This document shows positions 417-1,400 of a stretch of 10,602 bases of DNA, in pieces (within the stretch, counting starts at the first letter, position 1; the number at the start of each line of letters is the position of its first letter). The notes under the pieces were generated by a model. That model saw only the letters and a list, made by a program, of their open reading frames with translations. It had not been told where the DNA came from and did not search any database. Origin of the DNA: Candidatus Thorarchaeota archaeon (lineage in GTDB: Archaea > Asgardarchaeota > Thorarchaeia > Thorarchaeales > Thorarchaeaceae); NCBI GenBank assembly GCA_048882045.1, contig JBHLRZ010000061.1, positions 1-10,602 on the forward strand, written 5' to 3'. A program made the translations under genes and the position numbers.

Positions 417-550
417 AACACAGCACTTACTATTGATATTCAGAATTGGCTACTTTGCAGAGTTACTTTGCAAACTATATTGATGTTGCTCAGCTTTGAA
501 TCTCTAGGACCTTATATCACAAGGCCGCTACTCAGAAATGGGTCCAGAGC

Positions 551-802
551 ATGAATCTTGTCCTTCTCCAATCACCACTAACAAACTTTGCTGAGATGAT
601 AGGTGCGTACCTAGCAGAAATCTGGGATTTTCTAATCTTCTTGGGCCAGATATCAGGAATCATGGTAGTTCTGATTGGTGCTATCCTCTGGTTTACGGAT
701 GTGAATCCAAAGAGGGGAAAGGGACTTGTTGCAAGTGGTATCATCCTCTCTGTGGTCATCGAGTACTTTATTCTGTTTCCACCTGGATTTGTAGGTACAT
801 AG
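551..802 (+). CDS. Small membrane protein with two hydrophobic helices (VirB2/TrbC pilin-like candidate)
   Basis: ATG start, 83 aa. Hydrophobic stretches FLIFLGQISGIMVVLIGAILWF and LVASGIILSVVIEYFILF are separated by a basic loop PKRGK. TATA-like TTATAT at 512-517. Confidence 0.75.
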   Translation: MNLVLLQSPLTNFAEMIGAYLAEIWDFLIFLGQISGIMVVLIGAILWFTDVNPKRGKGLVASGIILSVVIEYFILFPPGFVGT

Positions 803-809
803 AGGGAAC

Positions 810-1004
810 TCAGAATCCCTTACTCAGTATATGCCTTATTTCTCTCCTCACAAGCTCGATGAAGTCTGGAGCGTTACAAACGCCGTACTGATCATGGTAG
901 TCACGATACTCATCTGTATCAAAGATACTGAGAACTGATTCCACTGCTTCAAGCTGGTCCTTTGTCAGACTACGAACTAGAGAGGATAGTACTGTGTCTG
1001 TCAT
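810..1004 (-). CDS. Small acidic, probably helical hypothetical protein (64 aa)
   Basis: ATG start with TATA-like TTATAT (1032-1027, minus) 28 nt upstream, the geometry of a leaderless archaeal transcript. Converges on 551..802 with a 7-bp gap. Confidence 0.65.
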   Translation of the reverse strand: MTDTVLSSLVRSLTKDQLEAVESVLSIFDTDEYRDYHDQYGVCNAPDFIELVRREIRHILSKGF

Positions 1005-1026
1005 ATCCTCCTGTCAGCTGAGTTGA

Positions 1027-1058
1027 ATATAACCTCACCAATTTCTAGGAGGTTATTA
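1027..1058. promoter_or_regulatory. Back-to-back divergent TATA-like boxes embedded in the inverted repeat ATAACCTC-N12-GAGGTTAT
   Basis: ATAACCTC (1029-1036) and GAGGTTAT (1049-1056) are perfect reverse complements. Read outward, each strand gives GAGGTTAT(A/T)(T/A). Minus-strand TTATAT is 28 nt before the ATG at 1004. Plus-strand TTATTA (1053-1058) is 28 nt before 1081. Confidence 0.55.
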
Positions 1059-1080
1059 GACAATCTCAGTACTCAGATAT

Positions 1081-1158
1081 GATGGGCGCCACGGCCCCCA
1101 CACGTACTGCGTGTCTATCGTTCCCCCGCTTTCCCGGCGGTGTGGCGCCTTCACTTTT
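1081..1158 (+). ncRNA. Candidate small structured non-coding RNA (three-way junction), family unknown
   Basis: 1084-1149 has 48/66 G+C in an otherwise AT-rich intergenic region. Closing stem GGGCGCCACG (1084-1093)/TGTGGCGCCT (1141-1150), hairpin ACACG (1100-1104)/CGTGT (1110-1114), hairpin CCGC (1126-1129)/GCGG (1137-1140). G-U wobbles extend the stems only on the plus strand. TATA-like box upstream and TTTT at 1155-1158. Confidence 0.55.
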
Positions 1159-1400
1159 CGGTCCTTAAATCCTATTGATGATCATTATCTTCTGGGGGTG
1201 AAGAAGGGACATGCATCCACCAAGTCATCCACTTGATGAGCCATTCTAAGAAAGTACTTGGGCCAAACCTAATGCAATCAATTCATACTTAGTTTAATGG
1301 TAGGAGGGGATATGTTCACACACCCACTCTGTTTTCTTTTAGCGCAGACAATCATGCTTTAATGTGGGAACCATCCTGCTCGGACTCGAGGCGAAAGCTG

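Follow-up and report, generated by a model that had tools for sequence, protein, structure and literature searches.

A genus-restricted candidate small RNA gene of Thorarchaeota that may pair with the mRNA start of its divergent neighbour

The DNA analysed here, called the window throughout, is a stretch of 10,602 nucleotides from a Candidatus Thorarchaeota archaeon. Close to its beginning, a GC-rich island lies in the gap between a minus-strand open reading frame at 810-1004, which encodes a 64-amino-acid orphan protein (p64), and a plus-strand open reading frame at 1362-2222, which encodes a nucleotidyltransferase of the Pol-beta type with DUF4037. The gene order is constant in every locus: a gene for an 83-amino-acid membrane protein (plus strand), p64 (minus strand), the RNA element (plus strand) and the nucleotidyltransferase gene (plus strand). 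The features of p64 and of the island are the following, in window coordinates.

810-1004, minus strand: p64, 64-amino-acid orphan gene, divergent neighbour and candidate target, syntenic in all loci
994-1004, minus strand: first 11 nucleotides of the p64 mRNA, AUGACAGACAC, complementary to the RNA core
1025-1032, minus strand: TATA box of p64, TTATATTC, about 20 nucleotides before the ATG
1053-1060, plus strand: TATA box of the RNA gene, TTATTAGA (GCTTATTAG in most relatives), conserved in all loci
1081, plus strand: predicted transcription start, the G of TG, inferred as the 21st nucleotide past the 8-nucleotide TATA box
1081-1158, plus strand: full span of the island, GAUGGGCGCCACGGCCCCCACACGUACUGCGUGUCUAUCGUUCCCCCGCUUUCCCGGCGGUGUGGCGCCUUCACUUUU
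1084-1093, plus strand: 5' strand of the closing stem P1, GGGCGCCACG, paired with 1141-1150; 98% of alignment cells paired
1094-1099, plus strand: C-rich junction GCCCCC (GGUCCCU in most relatives), conserved, unpaired and pyrimidine-rich
1100-1114, plus strand: P2 hairpin, ACACG-UACUG-CGUGU, specific to the clade of the window
1112-1121, plus strand: conserved core UGUCUAUCGU, candidate seed against the 5' end of the p64 mRNA
1126-1140, plus strand: P3 hairpin, CCGCU-UUCCC-GGCGG, with an invariant UCCC loop; 99% of cells paired
1141-1150, plus strand: 3' strand of P1, UGUGGCGCCU, paired with 1084-1093
1151-1158, plus strand: 3' tail UCACUUUU, probable termination tract

Next to p64, open reading frames at 551-802 (plus strand) and 532-759 (minus strand) overlap on opposite strands. 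The plus-strand frame, which encodes the hydrophobic 83-amino-acid protein, is the conserved one, with 70-95% identity across the genus compared with 47-88% for the antisense frame; its product has two predicted membrane helices and falls into no Pfam or NCBIfam family.

The p64 gene was found in 24 of 24 genomes of the genus and in none of the 276 other Asgard genomes searched. Its product is soluble, acidic and helical; no Pfam or NCBIfam family was found for it, and a protein atlas gave no informative look-alike. An invariant motif of the protein, EYRDYHxQ(F/Y)GxCNAP, contains a single conserved cysteine. The p64 promoter box is conserved and AT-rich, and its distance of about 20 nucleotides from the ATG is fixed across lineages. 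A TATA box this close to the start codon predicts that the p64 mRNA is leaderless. Between p64 and the RNA element, the distance is nearly fixed at 48-52 nucleotides. A single symmetric bidirectional promoter, as considered in the preliminary description of this DNA, does not account for the arrangement in the gap, which instead contains two separate back-to-back TATA boxes, each about 20 nucleotides from its own start.

At 71.6% GC, positions 1084-1150 stand well above the window (45%) and the genome (44.2%), in agreement with the high-GC island described earlier. Elsewhere in the window, 67-nucleotide stretches reach at most 61% GC, and of 3.6 million genomic segments of this length, 166 (4.6e-5) have at least 71.6%. 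The minimum-energy fold matches the structure drawn previously, in which paired ends enclose two hairpins: P1 closes the element, and 1081-1082 with 1151-1152 extend the pairing. All three wobble pairs named at that time (1084-1150, 1093-1141 and 1130-1136) are found in this fold, and the reported TTATTA upstream and TTTT after the stem are located at 1053-1058 and 1155-1158. The fold energy of the plus strand is -30.5 kcal/mol (z = -2.6, with 2 of 200 shuffled sequences folding equally well); for the minus strand, z is -1.9.

The genome, of 3.6 Mb, contains a single copy of the element. Within the same Thorarchaeota genus, searches with BLAST and with a covariance model of 21 homologues located exactly one copy in 26 of 27 genomes, and metagenome contigs contributed about 20 further copies, giving 47 distinct sequences in total. 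In 58 genomes from 15 other genera of the family, the same two methods did not find the RNA; a single weak match scored 19 bits. A dispersed MITE- or REP-like repeat, which would have undermined the original proposal, is not what these counts describe, since the genome itself and each of 26 relatives carry a single copy. In one species of the genus (G025), a clean deletion has removed the promoter and the RNA body, and both p64 and the nucleotidyltransferase gene are retained. The island is very likely a genuine and undescribed small RNA gene, restricted to one genus of Asgard (Thorarchaeota) archaea.

Sequence identity of the element in relatives is 73-89%, while synonymous sites of the adjacent gene are saturated. 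The four-fold sites of the adjacent protein gene have entropies of 0.9-1.95 bits in the same sequences; because these sites are near saturation, the conservation of the RNA is meaningful. The conserved block extends from about 40 nucleotides upstream (TTCTAGGTGCTTATTAGAC) to the UCAC and T/C tract past the stem, and then ends. Within the block, GGCGCCAC, UGUCUGUC, CCGCUUCCCGGCGG and GUGGCGCC are invariant or nearly so. Of 45 sequences, 44 share the first eight bases of the core, UGUCUGUC, unchanged, the sole exception being the window itself (A1117). In most relatives the core reads UGUCUGUCGU; in a clade of nine loci with insertions it reads UGUCUGUCUU and ends in UU rather than GU.

Standard pairs occupy 98.7% of the P1 and P3 cells of the alignment. 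In P3, one-sided changes from C-G to U-G occur in loci L042 and L177, and from U-G to C-G in L198; in P1, there is a single double change from C-G to U-A (L052), and G-U wobbles occur in L054, L056, L204 and L212. Covariation is not significant, since the helices hardly vary: there is only the one double change, and 58 of 500 shuffles attain the observed value. RNAalifold first offered an alternative helix, CUGUCG/CGGCGG, which we rejected: A1117 of the window and the G-to-U change of the insertion clade break its pairing and are uncompensated. CCGCU/GGCGG is preferred because the U-G and C-G changes keep it paired. P2 is strong only in the window, L050, L052, L177, L207 and L216; in other lineages the corresponding region forms weak and different pairings. 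The conserved architecture thus consists of P1 and P3 framing a flexible centre of about 35 nucleotides.

In ten variants, 25-60 additional nucleotides follow immediately on the 5' strand of P1; both P1 strands and the promoter spacing are kept in them. In L053, the inserted bases fold into three hairpins of their own. The expansion between P1 and the ACGGUCCC junction, of 25-60 nucleotides, marks one clade (L053 from G010, L054-L056, L187, L190, L198, L199 and L203), and it seems to have originated by duplication of the UGAA(C/A)GG start region.

An independently transcribed plus-strand RNA of about 70-78 nucleotides had been proposed from the window alone, and the comparative evidence agrees with such a predicted transcript. 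As is characteristic of an archaeal small RNA gene, the element has its own TATA box at a fixed distance, and its conservation is bounded by its ends. In all 45 of 45 loci, the box (TTATTAG) stands exactly 24 nucleotides ahead of the stem's first residue, with a spacer that varies in sequence and is fixed in length; indels are frequent elsewhere in the locus. A TG dinucleotide at positions -4/-3 relative to the stem is nearly invariant in every lineage, so that the likely transcription start is G1081. The same type of box (CTTAAATC, TTTTATTAG, GCTTAATAT and others) lies 22-31 nucleotides upstream of the 17 tRNA genes identified in this genome by ARAGORN, whose T/C-rich trailers resemble the tail of the RNA, UCACUCUUUC. 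In most loci the tail consists of UCAC and a T/C-rich run after the stem, where conservation ends. Three loci are devoid of a T-run after P1, and in these some read-through into the downstream gene is possible. As a side observation, 17 is a low number of tRNA genes for this 93%-complete genome (G000), in which no archaeal 16S rRNA was detected; many tRNA genes are probably intron-containing or unassembled.

The strand of the transcript is indicated by the wobble pairs. As previously noted for the window, these exist on the plus strand only: U1130-G1136, which closes the P3 loop, and G1093-U1141 are conserved and correspond to A-C mismatches on the other strand. Stem substitutions in L042, L054, L056, L177, L204 and L212 likewise generate G-U or U-G pairs on the plus strand only. 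Taken at the level of sequence comparison, we consider it highly probable that the island is an independent small RNA gene of about 75 nucleotides.

The preliminary description could not place this RNA in any known class, and our searches lead to the same result. Rfam 15 gave no match at gathering thresholds across the whole window; at E up to 10 in the region 1000-1370, two chance-level matches appeared, both outside the element and neither a riboswitch, and ARAGORN detected no tRNA or tmRNA gene in the window. The fold contains neither a 7-nucleotide anticodon loop nor a T-loop sequence. Readings of the UGA...UCA flanks as a K-turn, a C/D box or an H/ACA element were rejected by eye, as neither GA/AG tandem pairs nor an ACA box are present. 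The loose likeness to Y RNA or vault RNA suggested earlier did not find support. What is shared is limited to the pairing of the 5' and 3' ends, the richness of the internal loops in pyrimidines and the U-rich tail; the conserved motifs of these families are absent from the Thorarchaeota RNA, which has no match in Rfam. A TROVE/Ro protein (PF05731) was not found in the 93%-complete genome by a search that detected the Deinococcus and Bacteroides controls. The corresponding search for the vault protein matched none of its control genomes and is uninformative.

The central segment (A)GUGUCUGUCGU of the RNA is the reverse complement of the coding start of p64, AUGACAGACAC(U), AUG included, and the majority core, UGUCUGUCGU, is complementary to nucleotides 1-13 of the p64 mRNA. 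With the register fixed at nucleotide 1 of the p64 AUG, a duplex of 8-13 base pairs with these 13 nucleotides can form in 39 of 44 loci, and the seed complementarity expected of a base-pairing sRNA is therefore present. Its length is 13 base pairs in 15 loci, 11 in 11, 10 in six and 8-9 in seven; the last group is the insertion clade, in which the duplex begins at nucleotide 3. In five loci, window included, the duplex is reduced to 6-7 base pairs or interrupted, and in the window A1117 splits it into 4+6 base pairs. Among 3000 gene starts of the genome, only 0.1% pair as well with an RNA of the majority type; the corresponding rank is 0.3-0.5% for L207, 1-7% for other clades and 2.6% by energy for the window. 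All of 40 sequences have A at the four-fold site of p64 codon 2, in contrast to every other four-fold site, where the entropy is 0.9-1.95 bits; alternatively, this invariance could reflect a constraint on a leaderless 5' end. An additional GTACTG match between the P2 loop of the window and p64 codons 4-6 was set aside as possibly due to chance, being confined to the window and, in part, L207.

On this basis we tentatively propose that the RNA is a base-pairing regulator of p64, acting by a specific pairing mechanism. The RNA would be transcribed from its own TATA box at 1053-1060, starting near G1081 and ending in the pyrimidine/U tract past 1150. P1 and P3, the latter a GC hairpin with a UCCC loop, would form a rigid frame that presents the flexible central segment of about 35 nucleotides, in which the invariant UGUCUGUCGU would pair with the extreme 5' end of the p64 mRNA. 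On a leaderless mRNA, such a duplex would extend over the 5'-terminal AUG and codons 2-4, and either translation initiation on p64 would be blocked or the stability of its mRNA altered. The broader picture, in which the RNA would silence a leaderless mRNA through sequestration of the 5'-terminal AUG within a recent, genus-specific orphan module of an RNA and a 64-amino-acid protein, is possible but doubtful.

Our confidence in the pairing mechanism is restrained, because the match was noticed post hoc, no compensatory changes accompany it, and breaks in the duplex are about as frequent as changes that keep it by wobble pairing. Across loci, no compensatory changes between seed and target were seen, and the co-evolution of a regulator with its target is thus not apparent. 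About five lineage-level changes break the duplex (replacement of G7 by A or C in L046, L212 and L183, a change in L048, and the G-to-U change of the insertion clade), and about as many changes preserve it through wobbles. Confidence is lowered further because several unrelated genes likewise start with ATGACAGAC, because the codon-2 site has the alternative explanation given above, and because p64 occurs without the RNA in G025.

Pairing with p64 alone does not explain why P3 and its UCCC loop are so strictly conserved. That P3 and two UCCC motifs are conserved in this way suggests an additional function, for example a protein partner or pairing with ribosome-binding sites. Another possible reading, to which we give limited weight, is accordingly that of an independent small RNA gene with a different job, as a protein-bound or scaffold RNA or as a general anti-Shine-Dalgarno regulator. 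The invariant UCCC motifs, in the junction GGUCCCU and in the P3 loop, would then act on many mRNAs, and the complementarity to p64 would be a by-product, for example of a local duplication. One short seed would not need P1, P3 and the UCCC loop to be conserved so strictly, and both the tolerance of duplex-breaking changes in several lineages, that of the window among them, and the retention of p64 by the species that lost the RNA fit this reading. From the sequences, the C-rich junction can also pair with the ribosome-binding site GGGGGUGA of a tiny open reading frame downstream, although a match of UCCC to a G-rich ribosome-binding site is generic. However, no partner protein or target set was identified, and p64 is acidic and matches no RNA-binding family. 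A genome search with the RNA found no complementarity beyond chance; for the RNA of the window, extended trans targets were at chance level only (14-mers, E about 0.7). Base pairing with p64 remains the reading we prefer.

The DNA on the 3' side of the RNA is variable. In most relatives a conserved GCTTTAAT box follows within about 25 nucleotides, in the window and some relatives a module of a promoter and a tiny open reading frame lies between the RNA and the nucleotidyltransferase gene, and in two lineages a 1.3-kb gene on the opposite strand does so. An explanation of this variability by an integrase or att sites finds no support, as the inserted 370-amino-acid gene has no Pfam match. The tiny module of the window (1164-1249) has a TATA-like CTTAAATC at 1164-1171, a strong ribosome-binding site, GGGGGTGA, at 1194-1201 and an open reading frame of 12 codons at 1211-1249 (MHPPSHPLDEPF, followed by a stop). 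The corresponding peptides of relatives are MHPPADPEDEPF, MPPSNSPDEPF, MNPSNPDDEPY and MTRDPNSPPAEPW, with a conserved C-terminal (D/A)EP(F/Y/W). This module is confined to a subset of the genus.

In the region 1341-1403, ATG 1362, the apparent start of the nucleotidyltransferase frame, lies inside a conserved motif, GCGCAGACAATCATGCTTTAATG, which behaves as a promoter (the GCTTTAAT box) and not as coding sequence. Seven genomes have stop codons in the nucleotidyltransferase frame upstream of about residue 14, and the GCTTTAAT motif is therefore non-coding in these seven. The real start of the gene is probably TTG 1401, which has GAGG 9 nucleotides upstream. In four genomes of another genus (G086, G088, G090 and G091), the nucleotidyltransferase is 83-86% identical to that of the window, compared with 69-73% for many orthologues of the same genus, which hints at gene transfer between Thorarchaeota genera.

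The position of the RNA, always upstream of the nucleotidyltransferase gene and on the same strand, raises the question of a cis-acting 5' leader, either an attenuator or a riboswitch-like sensor, that would control read-through from the upstream promoter into this gene (1362/1401-2222). The tail is only about 25-30 nucleotides from the start region of the gene in most relatives, the three loci lacking a T-run would allow such an arrangement, and the highly conserved unpaired nucleotides of the junction resemble those of ligand-binding RNAs. We nevertheless consider a leader unlikely. The conserved TATA-like GCTTTAAT box stands between the RNA and the gene, and either the promoter and tiny-frame module or the 1.3-kb opposite-strand gene can intervene. 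The element is thus not in an obligate 5' UTR position free of an intervening promoter. Orthologues of the nucleotidyltransferase in four other genera (63-86% identity) have no such element within 1.5 kb upstream in a search with filters off, and p64 is likewise absent upstream of them. Moreover, the species that deleted the RNA kept the gene together with its promoter box, and Rfam contains no matching riboswitch even at the relaxed threshold. Because the nucleotidyltransferase gene is separable from the RNA and has its own promoter, the RNA is unlikely to be an obligate cis leader.

Very improbable, finally, is a role as DNA, in which the inverted repeat GGCGCCAC...GTGGCGCC and the repeated GTGTCTGTC would be protein sites regulating the back-to-back promoters. 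In its favour, the inverted repeat hardly varies and shows next to no covariation, and most lineages have two directly oriented copies of GTGTCTGTC (994-1002 and 1111-1119) spaced by about 118 bp. Against it, the stem substitutions keep G-U pairs on the plus strand only and degrade the palindrome as DNA, insertions of 25-60 nucleotides split the arms and neither arm is lost, the arms are about 47 bp apart around a conserved, asymmetric interior, and the element follows a TATA box at a fixed distance, as expected of a transcribed gene.

The arrangement of the RNA and p64, as proposed here for base pairing, has counterparts in known systems. In the bacterial type I toxin-antitoxin loci tisB/istR-1 and shoB/ohsC, sRNA and gene form divergent, non-overlapping pairs, and the sRNA shares a short complementarity with the 5' part of the mRNA of the back-to-back small protein gene. 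The RNA and p64 are also back-to-back with a short 5' complementarity, but the host is an archaeon and p64 is soluble, acidic and helical, not a hydrophobic membrane toxin. No toxin function of p64 is suggested.

Archaea commonly have leaderless mRNAs, and sRNA targeting of the mRNA 5' end is considered rare among them. In sRNA162 of Methanosarcina mazei, a single-stranded linker between structured parts pairs with an mRNA and masks its translation start signal (PMC3510493). sRNA162 is likewise an intergenic archaeal small RNA adjoining one of its targets; it masks an internal ribosome-binding site, overlaps its cis target and has been tested experimentally (PMC3510493). By contrast, the Thorarchaeota RNA is known from sequence alone, it would act at the 5'-terminal AUG of an mRNA that is probably leaderless and comes from a non-overlapping divergent gene, and it has no sequence or structural homology with sRNA162. 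The intergenic sRNA154 and sRNA41 of M. mazei have loops with sequences that mask ribosome-binding sites (PMC5867862). The two invariant, unpaired UCCC motifs of the Thorarchaeota RNA are reminiscent of these loops, but the RNA comes from another phylum, lacks homology to sRNA154 and sRNA41, and no ribosome-binding-site target was identified for it. By its predicted properties, the RNA would belong with the known class of archaeal intergenic regulatory RNAs, within which the family itself is undescribed and genus-restricted.

Our literature searches found no description of Thorarchaeota small RNAs. To our knowledge, no regulatory RNA of Asgard archaea has been characterised, and we know of no archaeal case in which an sRNA sequesters the 5'-terminal AUG of a leaderless mRNA. 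The RNA described here is confined to one genus, and its reach is narrow either way. It is a clean candidate, as a single-copy gene with a defined predicted promoter and ends and with one obvious neighbouring target. Should the pairing with p64 prove untrue, it would still be a strictly conserved structured RNA. Should it prove true, the locus would show small-RNA control of a leaderless mRNA, and a young pair of an RNA gene and a protein gene being born within one genus.
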